Shown: positions 3,520-22,683 of the stretch, in pieces
Numbering within the stretch: position 1 is the first letter of the stretch
Layout of the letters: the number at the start of each line of letters is the position of its first letter
Assembly: GCA_024229615.1 (NCBI GenBank)
Contig: JAAESG010000620.1
Span: forward strand, 1-62,371
Source: Gammaproteobacteria bacterium
GTDB taxonomy: Bacteria; Pseudomonadota; Gammaproteobacteria; GCA-001735895
Length of the DNA: 62,371 nt
Reading direction: 5' to 3'
Notes under the pieces: model-generated
The model's database searches: none
What the model was told of the DNA's origin: nothing
Seen by the model: only the letters and a program-made list of their open reading frames with translations
Program-made: the position numbers and the translations under genes

Positions 3520-3747
3520 GTGACATCTGAAAGCATAACTCCTAAACTCATCCTAGTCAAAGATGGGGAGCCGGATCAATTTTGGGTGAAGTGTAAACAT
3601 CCAAAATGCCTTTGGCTGAAGATAGCTTCCTCCGCAAAGAGCGGGCGCACCAAAGCGTTCGCGCACATCGCAACACACCTAACTCACACGGTTGAGTTAC
3701 ACACTATCCAAACGGAGGTATTACATGCCAAAAACTACAGAAGTTGA
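3520..3747 (+). CDS. Small C2H2-like protein
   Basis: AAGGAGG SD, GTG start; CKHPKC...HIATH. Confidence 0.55.
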   Translation: MTSESITPKLILVKDGEPDQFWVKCKHPKCLWLKIASSAKSGRTKAFAHIATHLTHTVELHTIQTEVLHAKNYRS

Positions 3748-4561
3748 ATTCACGGTCGAGGATCGAGACAAAGAAATCGAAAGGCTCGATCAACTGGTTC
3801 TTTCATTGGATGGCTTCTCGATCCCCGCTATCGCTCTCGAACAATCGCTCGAAGAGTGCCGATCCTTGAATGACAAGCTCGGGCTGGTCAGGGTCGAGGC
3901 GCTCAAGATCGATTCCCCTGCGCTCTATACCGACTACGGTTCGTTCTTTCGACGTATCAAGGACATCGAGAAAAAGATCGAAGAGCAACGGATAAAGGAT
4001 AAGGCGGGGCCGCTCGAAGAGGGACGAAGGATTGACGCGAAGTATGGCGGGTTCAAAGATTTCGCGAAGCGGTTGCGGACGGTTTTTGATTACGCTATGA
4101 ACATTTGGGATCGAGAGCAAAAAAGAATACAGCGCGAAGAGGAAGTTCGACTCCGCGAGAAGGCGCGGAAGGAGCAAGAGAAGCTCGACCTACGCGCCGA
4201 AAAGAAAGCGGCCAAGCTCGAAGACGAAGGCAAAACCGACGAAGCTGATGCAGTGCGCGAAGCGGTTCCGATTGTCCCTACTCCGACCGTTGCGCCAGCC
4301 GACATTCCAAAAGTTGCAGGCGTCACCAAAGTCAAGCGATGGAAGGCGGAGATTACCGCCGAGGCTCTCGACAAACAAGAAAAACTCCTCATCGAGATGA
4401 TTAAAAGCTGGAACGCTTGGCCGAAGAATCGAGGCAAAGAAATTATCCCTGGCGAGTTCTGGAGCCTCGATGTCAAAGCGATCAACGCGATGGCTCGCTC
4501 GCTAAAGGGAAAGCTCGAACTTCCCGATGTTGATGTCTTCGACGCCGACACGCGGCATTGA
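3725..4561 (+). CDS. Coiled-coil phage protein
   Basis: GGAGG SD; long E/K/R-rich helix then KVAGVTKVKRWKAEI. Confidence 0.7.
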   Translation: MPKTTEVEFTVEDRDKEIERLDQLVLSLDGFSIPAIALEQSLEECRSLNDKLGLVRVEALKIDSPALYTDYGSFFRRIKDIEKKIEEQRIKDKAGPLEEGRRIDAKYGGFKDFAKRLRTVFDYAMNIWDREQKRIQREEEVRLREKARKEQEKLDLRAEKKAAKLEDEGKTDEADAVREAVPIVPTPTVAPADIPKVAGVTKVKRWKAEITAEALDKQEKLLIEMIKSWNAWPKNRGKEIIPGEFWSLDVKAINAMARSLKGKLELPDVDVFDADTRH

Positions 4562-4564
4562 GCC

Positions 4565-4864
4565 ATGGCACACAAAATAAGGATTCTGGCTCGGACGGGG
4601 GGCTTCTGTCTTTACGAAGAGATGCTCTTCATTGATTTTACTTACAATTATCGAGAGCTTGCATCTTCTGAGCTTGGGCCGGAAGGCTTGAGAAAGCTAC
4701 GGTCGGAAGATGCTTTTTCCTCTCTCGCCAAAGAAGTTCATCGCGCGGGGCTTTGCTTCAATCAAGACTTGCGATTCGTTCGAGAAACTTTGCCGAAGCA
4801 AAGAGGCTCTGATGTGAATACGGAGCGATGGAGCGTTTTTGTGTTCGTTAAGTGGGAGCCATAA
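4565..4864 (+). CDS. Hypothetical protein
   Basis: ORF packed within the operon. Confidence 0.5.
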   Translation: MAHKIRILARTGGFCLYEEMLFIDFTYNYRELASSELGPEGLRKLRSEDAFSSLAKEVHRAGLCFNQDLRFVRETLPKQRGSDVNTERWSVFVFVKWEP

Positions 4865-4867
4865 AAA

Positions 4868-5260
4868 ATGGCTTGCGATTGGATGCTTTGTGATAATCCG
4901 GTTGTCGCTGGAGAGCTTTATTGCATCGTTCACCTTCCGGATATTCTGAGAACGAGATGGGTTGAGCCAAACGAACGCGAACGGGAACGGCTCTATATCC
5001 TCATCGAAGAGTTGAACGAAGCGGGGCAAATTTTCAGCCGAGCACAACATATCGCTATGAAAGTGCTTCGCTTCGGTTTCGATGAGGTTTACCCGAAAAC
5101 AGAAACCGACAATCGCGCTCGACTTGAAGAGGAGCTAGGCGACGTTGCTGCGATGATCGAGATTATGGTTCTCGCTGGCGATGTCAGCGCGACGAACATA
5201 GTTCTTGCACGCAAAGCGAAGTTCGAAAAACTCAAACGCTTTATGAGAAATAAGCCGTGA
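4868..5260 (+). CDS. MazG-like nucleotide pyrophosphohydrolase
   Basis: LIEELNEAGQ...KVLRFG...LEEELGDVAAMI (EExxE / EExxD motifs). Confidence 0.7.
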   Translation: MACDWMLCDNPVVAGELYCIVHLPDILRTRWVEPNERERERLYILIEELNEAGQIFSRAQHIAMKVLRFGFDEVYPKTETDNRARLEEELGDVAAMIEIMVLAGDVSATNIVLARKAKFEKLKRFMRNKP

Positions 5261-5289
5261 AGTGAAAACCATAAGGAGGTTAAAAGCAC

Positions 5290-5889
5290 ATGGCGATTAA
5301 AGAAATAAAATTCAAGTTCAACGGTACAAGACCGTTGATGATTCAATCCGAGCGGACTGCCAATCCGCTCGACCCTATCACAAAAGGAATCAAGAAGTAT
5401 ACGAGCAAGCCAGCGAGTCAAAAAACGGACGCGGATCATCTTGCGGTTATGCGTCTTGAGTTCGAGGCTGCTTTTTACGTTGGCGCTCCCGATAATCTAG
5501 GGCCATGTATTCCTGGCCTTAACGTTGAAGCGTGCATCCGAGACGGGGCGAAGTCTCAACGCAAAGGTGCGACGATAACACGAGCGCTTAACGTTGCCGA
5601 AGAGTGGATTGCCGTACAGTACAAAGGACCGCGAACCATTGCGGAGCTTTGGGCGCAACCGGACAAGTTTGTTGACTATCGCGGCGTCAAGCCTACCAGC
5701 AAAGCTAAGGTTATGCGGTGCCGTCCTGTTTTTCATGGATGGTCCCTCGTTGCGACTGTTGAATTCGAAGACGAAATGATTAATCGAAAGCAGTTGATCG
5801 AATACGTAAAGTATGCCGGGAAATATGTCAGTGTCGGAACGTATCGTCCTACGTTCGGGCGCTTTTCTGTAAGCGTTTTAAAGAAATGA
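5290..5889 (+). CDS. Stand-alone Cas7/RAMP-like protein (candidate RNA-guided effector)
   Basis: N-terminal strand EIKFKFNGTRPLMIQ; PCIPGLNVEACIRDGA (cf. RAMP PxIPGSSxKGxxR); C-terminal G-rich loop AGKYVSVGTYRPTFGRFSV; AAGGAGG SD. Confidence 0.7.
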   Translation: MAIKEIKFKFNGTRPLMIQSERTANPLDPITKGIKKYTSKPASQKTDADHLAVMRLEFEAAFYVGAPDNLGPCIPGLNVEACIRDGAKSQRKGATITRALNVAEEWIAVQYKGPRTIAELWAQPDKFVDYRGVKPTSKAKVMRCRPVFHGWSLVATVEFEDEMINRKQLIEYVKYAGKYVSVGTYRPTFGRFSVSVLKK

Positions 5890-5893
5890 TTTC

Positions 5894-6315
5894 TGCGAGG
5901 CGCGGCAAAGCTTGGTCAAGCCCGGTATGGTTTCGTTTTGCGACGCCATGCGTGGCAAGGCAAGGATTTTATCTAACCTTGAAAAAGGGATGATGAAGAA
6001 ACAAAGGCCAAAGGCAAGGCGATGCGACGCCGTGCGCATCTTCGCTTGGCATGGTGTGGTCGGGTTGAGCATAGCGTTAGTGTTGCAGCGCACGGCAAGG
6101 CAAGGATTTTATCTAACCTAAGCAAAAGGGATGATGAAAGCAAAAGGTCAAAGGCTCGGAGCGGCAGTGTCGAGCCATGTTAGGCATTGCAGCGCTGAGA
6201 ATTGCAGAGCAAGGACCAAAGGCTTTGCCGAGCCTGGCGAGGCGCAGCGCGGTCGAGCACACCATGGCGCAGCGCGGAAAGGTTTGGCGATGCAAAGCAA
6301 GGATTTCATCTAACC
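5894..6315 (+). ncRNA. Array of four 5-nt-periodic (NGY-NN)n tracts with conserved boundary motif; candidate guide-RNA array
   Basis: Tracts 5894-5968, 6013-6108, 6153-6217, 6221-6305; central G in 58/60 pentamers, pyrimidine after it in 57/60; GCAAGGATTTYATCTAACC at 5960-5978, 6100-6118, 6297-6315. Confidence 0.75.
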
Positions 6316-6334
6316 TTTGAAGGAGAAAATTGAA

Positions 6335-6865
6335 ATGAAAAAGTCAACGCTCAAGGAATTGGCAGATCGAGCCATCCTCCGCGCTGGAGGCAACAGCCAT
6401 CAAGCATTCACGGCTTTGTTGAAGCGTGTCACAAACAACGAATCGCTCAAGGATTTAGCGGTTCGCTTGGGAGTTTCCCAAATTATCAGGAACGCACAAA
6501 ACGACATGAGAACAGCGGCATCTTCCGAACAGCTTGCCGAGTTTCTTGAATCTACACCAACAGGCAAACCTGTTGCCGCCATCTCGCCGGAGGATTTCAA
6601 ATTGCTCGAAGGGCGCTTCCTGTATCCGCTTCACAAAAGCGGAACATACATCGGCCTTGCAACCGAAGAGCTAATCCTCGAATCGATTGCCGAGATTGAT
6701 CGAAACATGGAAGGGCTTGCCAGCGCAAAAGGGTTTCAGGATGCAGTCTTGCGGGAACTTAAAAGGAAACGCAAGAACAAAAAGCAACGACCCATCGATG
6801 TTATGTCGGAACACGAAATAAACGAGCTTTACACGAAGCACTGCAAACAAAAAAAGGTAGCGTAG
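6335..6865 (+). CDS. Hypothetical protein directly downstream of the array (possible accessory gene)
   Basis: AAGGAG SD, MKKSTLKEL start. Confidence 0.7.
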   Translation: MKKSTLKELADRAILRAGGNSHQAFTALLKRVTNNESLKDLAVRLGVSQIIRNAQNDMRTAASSEQLAEFLESTPTGKPVAAISPEDFKLLEGRFLYPLHKSGTYIGLATEELILESIAEIDRNMEGLASAKGFQDAVLRELKRKRKNKKQRPIDVMSEHEINELYTKHCKQKKVA

Positions 6866-6875
6866 GTAATTTTTT

Positions 6876-7466
6876 ATGGAACTTGATCAAAGATGGTATG
6901 AGCCAGGGAAGAAAAAGATCCAGCGGCGCAAGCGCATTGATGTATCGGAGCGCGGCCAAAGGATCGCGCTCGAAGCGGGGCGAATCAAGTATGAATCGAA
7001 TCGACGAAGAGGATTCAAACATACATTCGGCCTCGATGATTCGATAGCTCTGCGCATGGATCAAGTCGGTGCCTTGGGAAAGGTTGCGATATTCGAACAT
7101 CTCGGGCTTGATCCGTCTCCTGTTCTCATCGACCGCCCTCCGCATCGTTACAAAGATCCAGACATCGATCCGAAGGTATGGATTAGAAGCGCCGAAGGTA
7201 CCAACAAACGTCTGTACCTGCGCAAGGATGACGAGCCTAATTCGGATGGGCTTTTCATTTGGGCTCCGGTTATCTCGTTCGAAGAGGGAATCGTTTTTTT
7301 TACCGGATGGATTTATTGTCATGAAGGATTGAAGTCTTACTACTGGCAACAAGTTCGAGCGGATCGCGATCCTCAGTTTTACGTTCCCAATTCTTTCCCT
7401 CCCCTTCGCCCGTATTCGACATTCCGCGAAGCGTGGGGGCAAGACAAACAAGGAGCGCTGTTCTAA
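6876..7466 (+). CDS. Hypothetical protein, possibly restriction-endonuclease-like fold
   Basis: GALGKVA...DPDID...WIRS...FFTGWI pattern; fold is inference. Confidence 0.55.
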   Translation: MELDQRWYEPGKKKIQRRKRIDVSERGQRIALEAGRIKYESNRRRGFKHTFGLDDSIALRMDQVGALGKVAIFEHLGLDPSPVLIDRPPHRYKDPDIDPKVWIRSAEGTNKRLYLRKDDEPNSDGLFIWAPVISFEEGIVFFTGWIYCHEGLKSYYWQQVRADRDPQFYVPNSFPPLRPYSTFREAWGQDKQGALF

Positions 7467-7741
7467 TGGACAAAGAAATGAACATAACAGCGATGATGAT
7501 TGGTGGTCCTTACGACCGGCGCCGGATCACTGTTCCAAAGGAAAAACCTTACATTGATATTCCAGAACAGCTAGATCGCTCCCTTGATTCCCCGGTTGCT
7601 CGTTTCCAAGTTCACCGCTACCAGAGGATGTCTTTCGTTGACAGCGACAGAGAATTGGTTTTCGTCTTCGTCCATTCCGACATGATGAAGGGTGGCATCT
7701 TGCGTCATCTTTTAGAAGCCTATAGGAGCCACAATGGATAA
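7466..7741 (+). CDS. Hypothetical protein (IGGPYD motif)
   Basis: AAGGAG SD; start overlaps upstream stop. Confidence 0.6.
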   Translation: MDKEMNITAMMIGGPYDRRRITVPKEKPYIDIPEQLDRSLDSPVARFQVHRYQRMSFVDSDRELVFVFVHSDMMKGGILRHLLEAYRSHNG

Positions 7742-8342
7742 GGGATTCACTGTAACAGAAGAGGGTAAGGCGCGAATCTATCTCTTCGAAAACCAACGCT
7801 ATCCCTCGGTAACGACCGTTATTCAATCGGTGCTACCGTTTTGGGAAGGCTCGAACCAGGAGGAAGCCTACGCGAAGGCGATGCTCGGGACCGAGGTTCA
7901 TTCGATGTGTGCCGAGCTTACTCTCAACCGGCGCTTTGCCGCGAAGCGTATCGCCGACTTCCATCCGAAGATTAGAGGGTACGGTTATTCCTGGCTCAAG
8001 TTCATGGAACAAACCGAGGCGGAAGTCATCTCGCAAGAACGCGCCATCTTCTCTCGCAAGCTCCGCGTGGCAGGTAGGCCGGACGCGATCATGATGATCA
8101 ACGGCAAGCGCACAGTTGCCGATTACACCATAGGAGCAACCCGCCTCGCGAAGAGATTGCAAACGTCTGCATACGCGATGATATGGAAAGAAGAGTTTAA
8201 GGATCGGCACAAGTATCATCGCATCGAGATCCCGCTCAAAGAGAATGGCAATCTCCCTACGCTTCGAGTTCATGATAACGACAACGACAAATCCGCTTTC
8301 ATCTCGGCGGTGAATTTCTACCGATGGAAGGAAGCGGCGTGA
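7734..8342 (+). CDS. PD-(D/E)XK exonuclease-like protein (Cas4/RecB-like phage family)
   Basis: YPSVTTVI, GTEVH, E...AGRPD...ADYT...LQTSAYA. Confidence 0.75.
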   Translation: MDKGFTVTEEGKARIYLFENQRYPSVTTVIQSVLPFWEGSNQEEAYAKAMLGTEVHSMCAELTLNRRFAAKRIADFHPKIRGYGYSWLKFMEQTEAEVISQERAIFSRKLRVAGRPDAIMMINGKRTVADYTIGATRLAKRLQTSAYAMIWKEEFKDRHKYHRIEIPLKENGNLPTLRVHDNDNDKSAFISAVNFYRWKEAA

Positions 8343-8866
8343 ACAGAAAAAAACGCTGCCCCGCACTTACTAGGTACAGCGTTCAATGCAAACATAGCGT
8401 CGAGTATGATCGAGACTATTGCCAGGTTCACGGCGAAGACAGCTTGACCGGAGGGCGGCGGATGGAAGTTATGGGCGGTTCTTTTTTGGCAAGACTGCCC
8501 TTGCCCATGGTTCCCGTTTGCGATTGGGAAACGCTTGGCGAAATCGCACAATGTATTTTGACAGCGAAGAGCGAGCAAAAAATGTTCGTGGTTGAAAAAG
8601 ATCCGGGTACGACAAAAGCGAGGAAAACTGTTGATCAATTAATGAGGGGCCAACGCGGTCAAACATTTTGCGATCAAAGAGGCGATCATCTTGGAATCAT
8701 CGAAAAGAGTTGGTGTGTTCGTTGCGACAAAAAAGACTTTTTGCTCGAAGGGCTTTGTCATCGATGCTGGCTTCGAAAAGCGGATAAAGAAAGGCGGCGA
8801 TCCATCAAGCAAGGGCTTGCTCCTAAAACACGCTTAGATTCTATCGATGGAAGCGAGGCGGCATGA
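8339..8866 (+). CDS. Multi-zinc-finger protein
   Basis: GTGA overlap; CPALT...C...CQVHG, CVRC...CHRC. Confidence 0.55.
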   Translation: MNRKKRCPALTRYSVQCKHSVEYDRDYCQVHGEDSLTGGRRMEVMGGSFLARLPLPMVPVCDWETLGEIAQCILTAKSEQKMFVVEKDPGTTKARKTVDQLMRGQRGQTFCDQRGDHLGIIEKSWCVRCDKKDFLLEGLCHRCWLRKADKERRRSIKQGLAPKTRLDSIDGSEAA

Positions 8867-9060
8867 AATATCTACAGCACGTTTACCAGTGCCCGCACAG
8901 TACCGTTACCGTGCGAACGCATATCGTAAAAGGGATCGCCGACAAACCGCGCGAGCAAGTTTGTGCTTGGTGCGATAGCGCCTCGGTTATGTTTTTGATC
9001 GGTTGGGATGTTGTTGAAAGCGTAGCACCCTTATCGACGCAAGAGATCGAGGCAAGATGA
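8863..9060 (+). CDS. Small Cys-rich protein
   Basis: ATGA overlap; CPH...CAWC. Confidence 0.5.
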   Translation: MKYLQHVYQCPHSTVTVRTHIVKGIADKPREQVCAWCDSASVMFLIGWDVVESVAPLSTQEIEAR

Positions 9061-22077: not shown

Positions 22078-22683
22078 ATGAAGAAAAAACCTATACGCAA
22101 GAAAGGCCGGAAGCCTGGGCCGAAGGCTCATAAAAAAAGAACCCGCGCTCCAGCAAAGAAAAAACCGCCTCGAAGAAAACTCTCGACGAAACAACTCCCC
22201 GAGCAAGATGTTGATTTCGAAACATTGCTCGGGGAGCTACTTCCAAGGCAAAAAGAATTTCTGGAAGCGTACTATGAAGAGGGAACGGTTGCAGAAGCCG
22301 CACGCAAAACCGGAGTTTCCCGCCAGGCACATCATGACGTTTGGATGAGAAAGGATAGCGCCGGGAAATATGTCTACGGGCTCTATGCTCAACTCTTCAA
22401 CGATGCAAGAAACGCGCTCGTCGAAATTGCAGAGGCCGCACTCTGGAAGCGTGGCGTCAAAGGGATCGATGAGCCCCTCTTCTATCAAGGCGAAATGACG
22501 AAACATAAAATAACGAAGTACGATACAACCGCTTTGATATTTTGGCTCAAAGGAAACTGCCCGCAGAAGTATCGAGATCGCTTCGAGCATACCGGTCGAG
22601 ATGGCGGACCTATCTCGATGACCATCGATGCCGCAAGACAAATCGCAGATAACTTCGACAAGAACCAAAAGGAGGGAACGTGA
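22078..22683 (+). CDS. terS: Terminase small subunit
   Basis: QKEFLEAY...GTVAEAARKTGVSR HTH; YDTTALIFWLKG..P.KYRDR.EHTG.DGGPI; upstream of TerL. Confidence 0.8.
   Translation: MKKKPIRKKGRKPGPKAHKKRTRAPAKKKPPRRKLSTKQLPEQDVDFETLLGELLPRQKEFLEAYYEEGTVAEAARKTGVSRQAHHDVWMRKDSAGKYVYGLYAQLFNDARNALVEIAEAALWKRGVKGIDEPLFYQGEMTKHKITKYDTTALIFWLKGNCPQKYRDRFEHTGRDGGPISMTIDAARQIADNFDKNQKEGT

Follow-up and report, generated by a model that had tools for sequence, protein, structure and literature searches.

With a probability that we put at about 0.9, the 447-nt gap between the open reading frames (ORFs) at 5290-5889 and 6335-6865 holds an array that encodes the guide RNAs of a phage-borne VIPR (Viral Interference Programmable Repeat) system. 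Judged from its sequence, the locus is a VIPR system, that is, a Vipr protein together with predicted vrRNAs, built from GGY/NN repeats and a constant 3' tail, and a divergent, marine-type phage example of it; we assign it to VIPR because the protein encoded upstream of the array is homologous to the Vipr protein of SUSP1. The window, by which we mean the whole stretch of DNA that was analyzed, is one complete contig (C620) of 62,371 bases from an assembly of 735 contigs and 5.24 Mb. VIPR was described in three 2026 bioRxiv preprints (10.64898/2026.04.26.720920, 10.64898/2026.04.26.720927 and 10.64898/2026.10.15.759431). As presented in them, Vipr is a minimal RAMP, and a vrRNA has 9-16 YNNGG units ahead of a tail that does not vary, with one protomer sitting on each unit and the GGY flipped out. 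The vrRNAs are described as reading double-stranded DNA in the form NNx, with the skipped base falling mostly at the wobble position of codons, and competing phages and satellites as being silenced at the level of transcription. Of the three, 10.64898/2026.04.26.720920 gives the 1-nt skip rule and the wobble alignment, 10.64898/2026.04.26.720927 the skipping of every third target nucleotide, and 10.64898/2026.10.15.759431 the prevention of mutational escape by codon periodicity.

The array comprises four tracts of 14, 18, 12 and 16 units, spread over 5895-6300, with a strict 5-nt period and units of the form xG-Y-NN. They begin 6 nt past the stop codon of the upstream gene, vipr, and lie on the same (+) strand. 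Extraction by script delineated the guide tract of vrRNA 1 (T1, 5895-5963, 14 units), that of vrRNA 2 (T2, 6014-6103, 18 units, including a single 6-nt unit at 6075-6080), a tail-less tract (T3a, 6154-6212, 12 units) and the guide tract of vrRNA 3 (T3b, 6222-6300, 16 units). In T1, GY recurs at period 5 in 14 of 14 units, and the NN string reads GA GC AA TT CA CC AT TT TT GA CA GT AA AA. The NN strings that an initial annotation had read from all four tracts were returned identically by the script, down to the 6-nt unit of T2, which it had written as GT(T). Over 5889-6340 the lag-5 identity is 0.436, as against 0.35 at lag 10 and 0.22-0.28 at lags 2-4, 6-9, 11 and 12. Across the 60 units of the four tracts, the second scaffold base (G2) is G in 58 and the third (Y3) is C or T in 57, the first (G1) is G in only 27, and all four bases occur at both NN positions. 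A filter for tracts with at least 9 GY at period 5 in at least 85% of units, run over the whole 5.24-Mb assembly, recovered three of these four tracts and one other, in contig C587. The tracts are real and far from what chance would produce. The additional tract (C587 2243-2293) was considered as a solo vrRNA and rejected; it is T-rich, has 11 units with GY in 10 of them, lacks both the tail motif and a Vipr gene, and is most likely a chance occurrence.

The gap also holds open, ATG-initiated frames of 43 and 60 codons (5991-6121 and 6131-6313), and it could be asked whether these are simply small protein-coding genes. We consider this practically negligible as an explanation, given that the 5-nt period is no multiple of three, that the two ORFs would translate the conserved tail motif described below in different frames, and that related loci (L001-L003, see below) differ from each other by whole 5-nt units. 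Separately, we noted that parts of the tracts are complementary to each other, T1 5895-5911 to T3b 6222-6238 (17 nt, 88%) and T2 6050-6062 to T3b 6254-6266 (13 nt, 92%); a GC recurring at period 5 by itself favours such pairing.

The vipr gene (5290-5889, + strand) encodes a 199-aa protein, for which a phmmer search against the PDB recovered chain 36pp_D, 'SUSP1 Vipr protein', with an e-value of 4.6e-27. The match aligns residues 4-197 with residues 2-190 (194 aligned), the protein identity to the SUSP1 type of system is about 35%, and the frame is intact and full length with respect to SUSP1 Vipr. The protein also matches phrog_4652 (E 1.4e-49). An AlphaFold2 model built from 27 aligned sequences (pLDDT 95, pTM 0.88) points to a Cas7/Csm3-like RAMP fold, and its best matches in a Foldseek search of the PDB, in a library that ends on 2026-04-08 and does not include 36pp, were backbone chains of the Csm3/Cas7 type (E 1.8e-7). 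The predicted product is thus a stand-alone, Cas7-like RAMP.

Searches with tblastn detected Vipr homologues in 130 phage records, from which we chose five phages, Medea1, MakoManhole, ekra, Trine and phiHSIC, for closer comparison, in addition to three viral contigs (L001-L003) that encode relatives of the upstream protein at 34% identity. In all 8 of these 8 other loci, GY tracts of period 5 adjoin the vipr homologue. The three viral contigs carry a strict GGY-NN array directly before the gene (L001 2840-2985, L002 2806-2985 and L003 57-197), in which short internal delimiters GGATTCCCT were also seen. Their flanks are identical, and their arrays differ in the number of units and in the NN bases; these arrays turn over quickly. 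The hypervariability of NN within a conserved scaffold was seen in these distant relatives. Two annotated hypothetical CDSs overlap vrRNA-like tracts of period 5, gene 40 of Gordonia phage Trine (L051 3088-3891) and ORF21 of Listonella phage phiHSIC (L052 3114-3395), and both are probably mis-annotated non-coding arrays. The phiHSIC array (L052 3151-3390) is built of xGCAN units with G at the first position in 2 of 29, and its strand is ambiguous, the GC being palindromic.

A ring-shaped or helical binder would likewise give a conserved triplet at 5-nt intervals, with the spacers free to vary, and the tracts might accordingly be read as a protein-binding array with no guide role, either a leader RNA of the TRAP type, bound by a multimer with one triplet every 5 nt, or a set of iteron-like DNA sites. 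This reading is very improbable. The protein next to the array is homologous to Vipr and is neither of the TRAP type nor an initiator, the NN string of T3b is informative in that it matches the small terminase gene in frame (see below), and the NN bases and unit number vary between the otherwise identical relatives on L001-L003. The match to PDB entry 36pp speaks against the TRAP-like or iteron reading; the triplets are xGY and the neighbouring protein is a RAMP.

On the + strand, the neighbourhood of the array is a phage early/replication module with genes for an HTH repressor, two exonuclease-like proteins, a MazG-like protein, an SNF2 helicase and a primase-polymerase. Rfam models yielded no match across the window at gathering thresholds. 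No CRISPR repeat-spacer array lies beside the RAMP gene; Tandem Repeats Finder applied to 4000-9000 returned nothing beyond a 19-nt chance repeat, and the only repeats found within 5800-6400 are those of the vrRNA tails and motifs. A scan of 5200-6900 found no sigma-70-like promoter, a kind of scan that is uninformative for phage. Directly after the array, in the position where an accessory gene could be, lies a gene for a 176-aa protein (6335-6865, + strand) that matched no Pfam, PHROG or NCBIfam family. In the ESM Atlas its best score was 0.86, to unnamed phage clusters that gave no lead. A family of vap1-like proteins is common to the VIPR loci of ekra, MakoManhole, Medea1 and L001, and the 176-aa protein resembles none of these four proteins (hhalign probability 0.4). 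A profile of the four, searched against the 673 ORFs of the window, detected no vap1-like gene, the best e-value being 0.29.

Three of the four tracts are closed by GGATTTYATCTAACCT, the exception being T3a. The constant motif GGATTTTATCTAACCT opens tail 1 (5964-5997, + strand; direct repeat D1, three copies) and is followed by a predicted two-step hairpin with a folding energy of -9.0 kcal/mol (z -2.3). Tail 2 (6104-6139, + strand) shares with it both the motif and the predicted topology of the hairpin (-7.4 kcal/mol, z -0.8). In tail 3 (6301-6336, + strand; GGATTTCATCTAACCT) a possible hairpin extends to the start codon of the next gene, at an energy (-4.7 kcal/mol, z +0.6) that does not support structure. 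For the hairpins of tails 1 and 2 the energies are barely better than those of shuffles, and support for folding of the tails is weak. The tail motif occurs in three copies across the whole assembly, all of them on the + strand and at the array, and exact matches to it in the viral contigs numbered zero. Ahead of every tail the last two units are AA AA (5954-5963, 6094-6103 and 6291-6300), and in phage ekra AT invariably takes the last place. The units next to the tail hence seem not to vary, and this would pin every target to a set ending.

The 5' ends of the tracts have a conserved element of their own. A 13-nt motif, AAAGGYCAAAGGC or a near copy of it, precedes T2, T3a and T3b and is absent before T1. 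The copy before T2 (AAAGGCCAAAGGC, 6003-6015, + strand) recurs at 6143-6155 and 6211-6223, making a direct repeat (D2) of three copies with 85-100% identity, and the motif might serve as a 5' handle or mark a site of processing. T3a terminates in GCAAGGA, the 7 bases with which the tail begins, and this stub is directly joined to the 5' motif of T3b (6205-6225). From this junction we infer that the tail of T3a, along with its spacer, was lost by deletion; the junction would then give either a composite tract of 29 units or a dead guide.

By analogy with the SUSP1 and P. fulva systems, the tracts would be transcribed into vrRNAs, on which one Vipr protomer would bind each unit, flip out the scaffold bases and present the two N bases for pairing with double-stranded DNA, read as NNxNNx. 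The resulting filament would keep a competing phage or mobile element from being transcribed. Since the skipped base aligns with the wobble position of codons, such a guide would read the amino-acid-determining bases of a coding target. The initial annotation, made from the sequence alone, had proposed that only the NN bases are read, against targets of the form NNxNNx, and that a skipped base at the wobble position would blunt synonymous escape. Both proposals correspond to the VIPR rule as set out in the three preprints, and the locus falls into that family by protein homology; the code of two bases read and one skipped was right in substance but had already been published in 2026. The annotation had also appended the next base to each NN pair, which gave EAKLQPMFFDHVKK for T1, FRLEAARTMAAKLDKK for T3b, and stops in T2 and T3a. 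We could reproduce these strings, but they and their stops carry no meaning, because the next base is the first scaffold position and is not read. Nor do stops set T2 and T3a apart from the other two, for both decode equally well to stop-free degenerate peptides.

To score gapped matches, the NN strings were compared with both strands of the contig at 0, 1, 2 and 3 skipped bases, with the locus masked, using the count of informative positions and a shuffled-guide null as in section 17 of 10.64898/2026.10.15.759431; the null comprised 1000 unit-order shuffles for each of the 16 tract-by-skip cases. A signal against the shuffled controls came only at skip 1, from T3b, which matched 24 of 32 read bases at 22618-22664 (+ strand), a score that 2 of 1000 shuffles reached; the scores of the other 15 combinations were reached by 56 to 1000 of 1000 shuffles. 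The T3b signal barely survives correction for 16 tests (2/1000 times 16). The skip-1 maxima on the contig were 18/28, 23/36, 18/24 and 24/32 for T1, T2, T3a and T3b, respectively, and nothing rose above shuffles for the first three. The T3a match at 4291-4325 (18/24) was set aside, as 56 of 1000 shuffles reach it and it lies out of wobble phase in ORF 3692-4561. The T3b site is the single best skip-1 match of this guide in the whole assembly. Within ORF 22078-22683 the site is in frame, the NN bases falling on codon positions 1-2, the phase in which the string had been read at the outset. This ORF encodes the small terminase of the phage itself, terS (phrog_4044, E 1.5e-22), and is located upstream of the large terminase gene.

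Decoded as codons, T3b reads [FL]RL[DE]AART[IM]AA[KN][FL][DE][KN][KN]. Comparison of this degenerate peptide with the phage's own MTIDAARQIADNFDKN gave a BLOSUM score of 56, which none of 200 shuffles reached (mean 35.5, sd 3.1, maximum 50). The equivalent peptide-level search of the window with T1, T2 and T3a, in both orientations, gave scores that 83 to 180 of 200 shuffles reached. The terS segment at the T3b site is the conserved 3' end of the gene, conserved in 15 terS homologues, one of which (P0035) fits T3b at 13 of 16 codons, as compared to 11 of 16 for the phage's own gene. The latter differs from T3b at 8 of 32 read bases, which places it under the published 80% threshold, and no self-target with an NN match of at least 80% was found in the 5.24-Mb assembly at skips 0-3. 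The systems published in 10.64898/2026.04.26.720920 are likewise described as having no self-target at an NN match of at least 80%. We put the chances at about even that T3b is aimed at the conserved 3' end of terS in related phages, and the small terminase of related phages is thereby added as a candidate class of VIPR targets.

Searches for a full target extended beyond the assembly. The viral contigs were scanned with exact gapped patterns, which would overlook a target carrying even one mismatch, and contained no match to T3b (14 units and 11 units), T1 (12 units), T2 (12 units) or T3a (11 units). With up to 3 mismatches allowed, T3b and T1, the two guides run against genomes of the host family, had no match in any of 79. 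Relatives of terS were absent from the viral contigs and from 78 other genomes of the family. Comparison of 39 metagenome contig loci yielded 3 close terS relatives, and the best T3b scores at the homologous site were 23/32 and 22/32. In a 596-Gb scan of genome contigs, the exact 11-unit core of T3b had one match (L047), in frame in a TraC/VirB4-like gene that matches TIGR02746 with an e-value of 2.9e-16, under the cutoff of that model. Over its full length T3b matches this site at 26 of 32 bases. This match is probably a chance one, because about 0.07-0.3 chance matches to the core are expected in such a scan (2 x 5.96e11 / 4^22, i.e. about 0.07 for uniform bases, and more for coding sequence), the flanking units match at only 4 of 10, and none of T1, T2 and T3a scored above shuffles on the 76.5-kb contig. 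At 80% or more, this probable chance match on L047 is the only one that the searches gave for T3b, and for T1, T2 and T3a none of them gave any.

The weakly conserved first scaffold base has a counterpart in the protein. The roles of the SUSP1 residues that contact G1, G2 and Y3 are described in 10.64898/2026.04.26.720927, and the phmmer alignment allowed us to place their equivalents. The residues holding G2 and Y3 are kept (SUSP1 R138 as R145, W178 as Y185, which preserves the aromatic character, and R179 as R186), whereas at the two positions that read G1 the protein has Q19 for H17 and T184 for D177. Given these replacements and the presence of G1 in only 27 of 60 units, the scaffold here is not strict GGY. 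The four closest homologues (P0003-P0006) share the same Q, together with T or N. We compared the residue at the SUSP1 H17 site with the occurrence of G1 in seven loci. It is H in ekra (G1 in 47/64 units), Medea1 (12/14), MakoManhole (30/34), Trine (21/23) and L001 (23/25), N in phiHSIC (2/29) and Q in this window (27/60), so that G1 makes up 73-92% with H at this site and 7-45% without it. The loss of the G1-reading residues fits the weak first G, the seven loci being a lead and not a test. The paired change of a relaxed first scaffold base and replaced reading residues could help to map the contacts that set the scaffold.

The same features could mark a decayed or partly inactive VIPR locus, one that descends from VIPR and in which silencing is no longer guided at all or is guided by T1 and T3b alone. 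The low frequency of G1 would fit such decay, as would the tail-less T3a and the 6-nt unit of T2, by which some guides may be defective, the lack of a vap1-like gene among the ORFs of the window, and the fact that three of the four guides had no target in our searches. However, the vipr frame is intact and of full length, and G2 and Y are kept in 58 and 57 of 60 units. The replacement by Q and T being common to P0003-P0006 suggests, at the level of these sequences, a stable subclade and not decay. Moreover, 10.64898/2026.04.26.720920 describes the scaffolds NNNGG, YNNNG and NNNNG as natural variants, and vap as typical of VIPR loci but not universal among them. We therefore regard decay as quite improbable and retain the reading of the locus as a VIPR system, in which the loss of the G1 contact is a variant and not a ground for exclusion, because that preprint lists YNNNG scaffolds among the members.

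VIPR, an RNA-guided silencer of DNA that is related to CRISPR and uses a gapped code, has come to light only very recently; it has been proposed to be older than CRISPR. The present locus leaves the picture of how VIPR works unchanged; what it illustrates is that raw sequence is enough to deduce the code, as the initial annotation did. As a speculative extension, which we hold to be rather unlikely, the subclade with Q19 and T184 may no longer read the first scaffold base, making its repeat xGY-NN, with that base either relaxed or informative, say through contact with the target base that is skipped. The same tentative proposal includes that a guide against the invariant 3' end of terS may shut down DNA packaging of sibling phages at co-infection, and that, if so, the constant AA-AA units beside the tail would be a built-in constraint on the end of the target.

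Among known systems, the closest parallel is the type II VIPR of SUSP1 and the Felixounavirus phages. Shared with it are a stand-alone, phage-borne Vipr RAMP, units of 5 nt divided into scaffold and NN and followed by a constant 3' tail, the location of these beside vipr on the same strand, the lack of a self-target and, putatively, the NNx code with wobble phasing. The present locus differs in its xGY scaffold (G1 in 27/60 units against 47/64 in ekra), in having Q and T in place of H17 and D177, in the sequence of its tail and the presence of one tail-less tract, and in the array being flanked by vipr and the gene that follows, without a detected vap1-like gene. Compared with the loci with alternative scaffolds, by the text description of these classes in 10.64898/2026.04.26.720920, the unit seen here fits YNNNG. 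The same preprint describes staggered arrays with overlapping vrRNAs, which the tail-less T3a-T3b junction recalls.

More distantly, the locus resembles the backbone of class 1 CRISPR-Cas systems (Cas7/Csm3 on crRNA), with which it shares the RAMP fold and, as described in 10.64898/2026.04.26.720927, the binding of a set number of guide bases by each protomer and a thumb-driven flipping of a base in each period. It is set apart from them by having no repeat-spacer array in 4000-9000. Class 1 CRISPR-Cas reads 5 of 6 guide bases, whereas VIPR reads 2 of 5 guide bases and 2 of 3 target bases. The sites bound by TRAP (trp RNA-binding attenuation protein) in Bacillus are triplets, (G/U)AG, spaced by 2-3 nt. 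They resemble the present units in that conserved triplets recur at intervals of about 5 nt and the bases between them are free; however, the protein is unrelated, being a RAMP at the present locus, the triplets here are xGY, and the spacers here probably carry target information.
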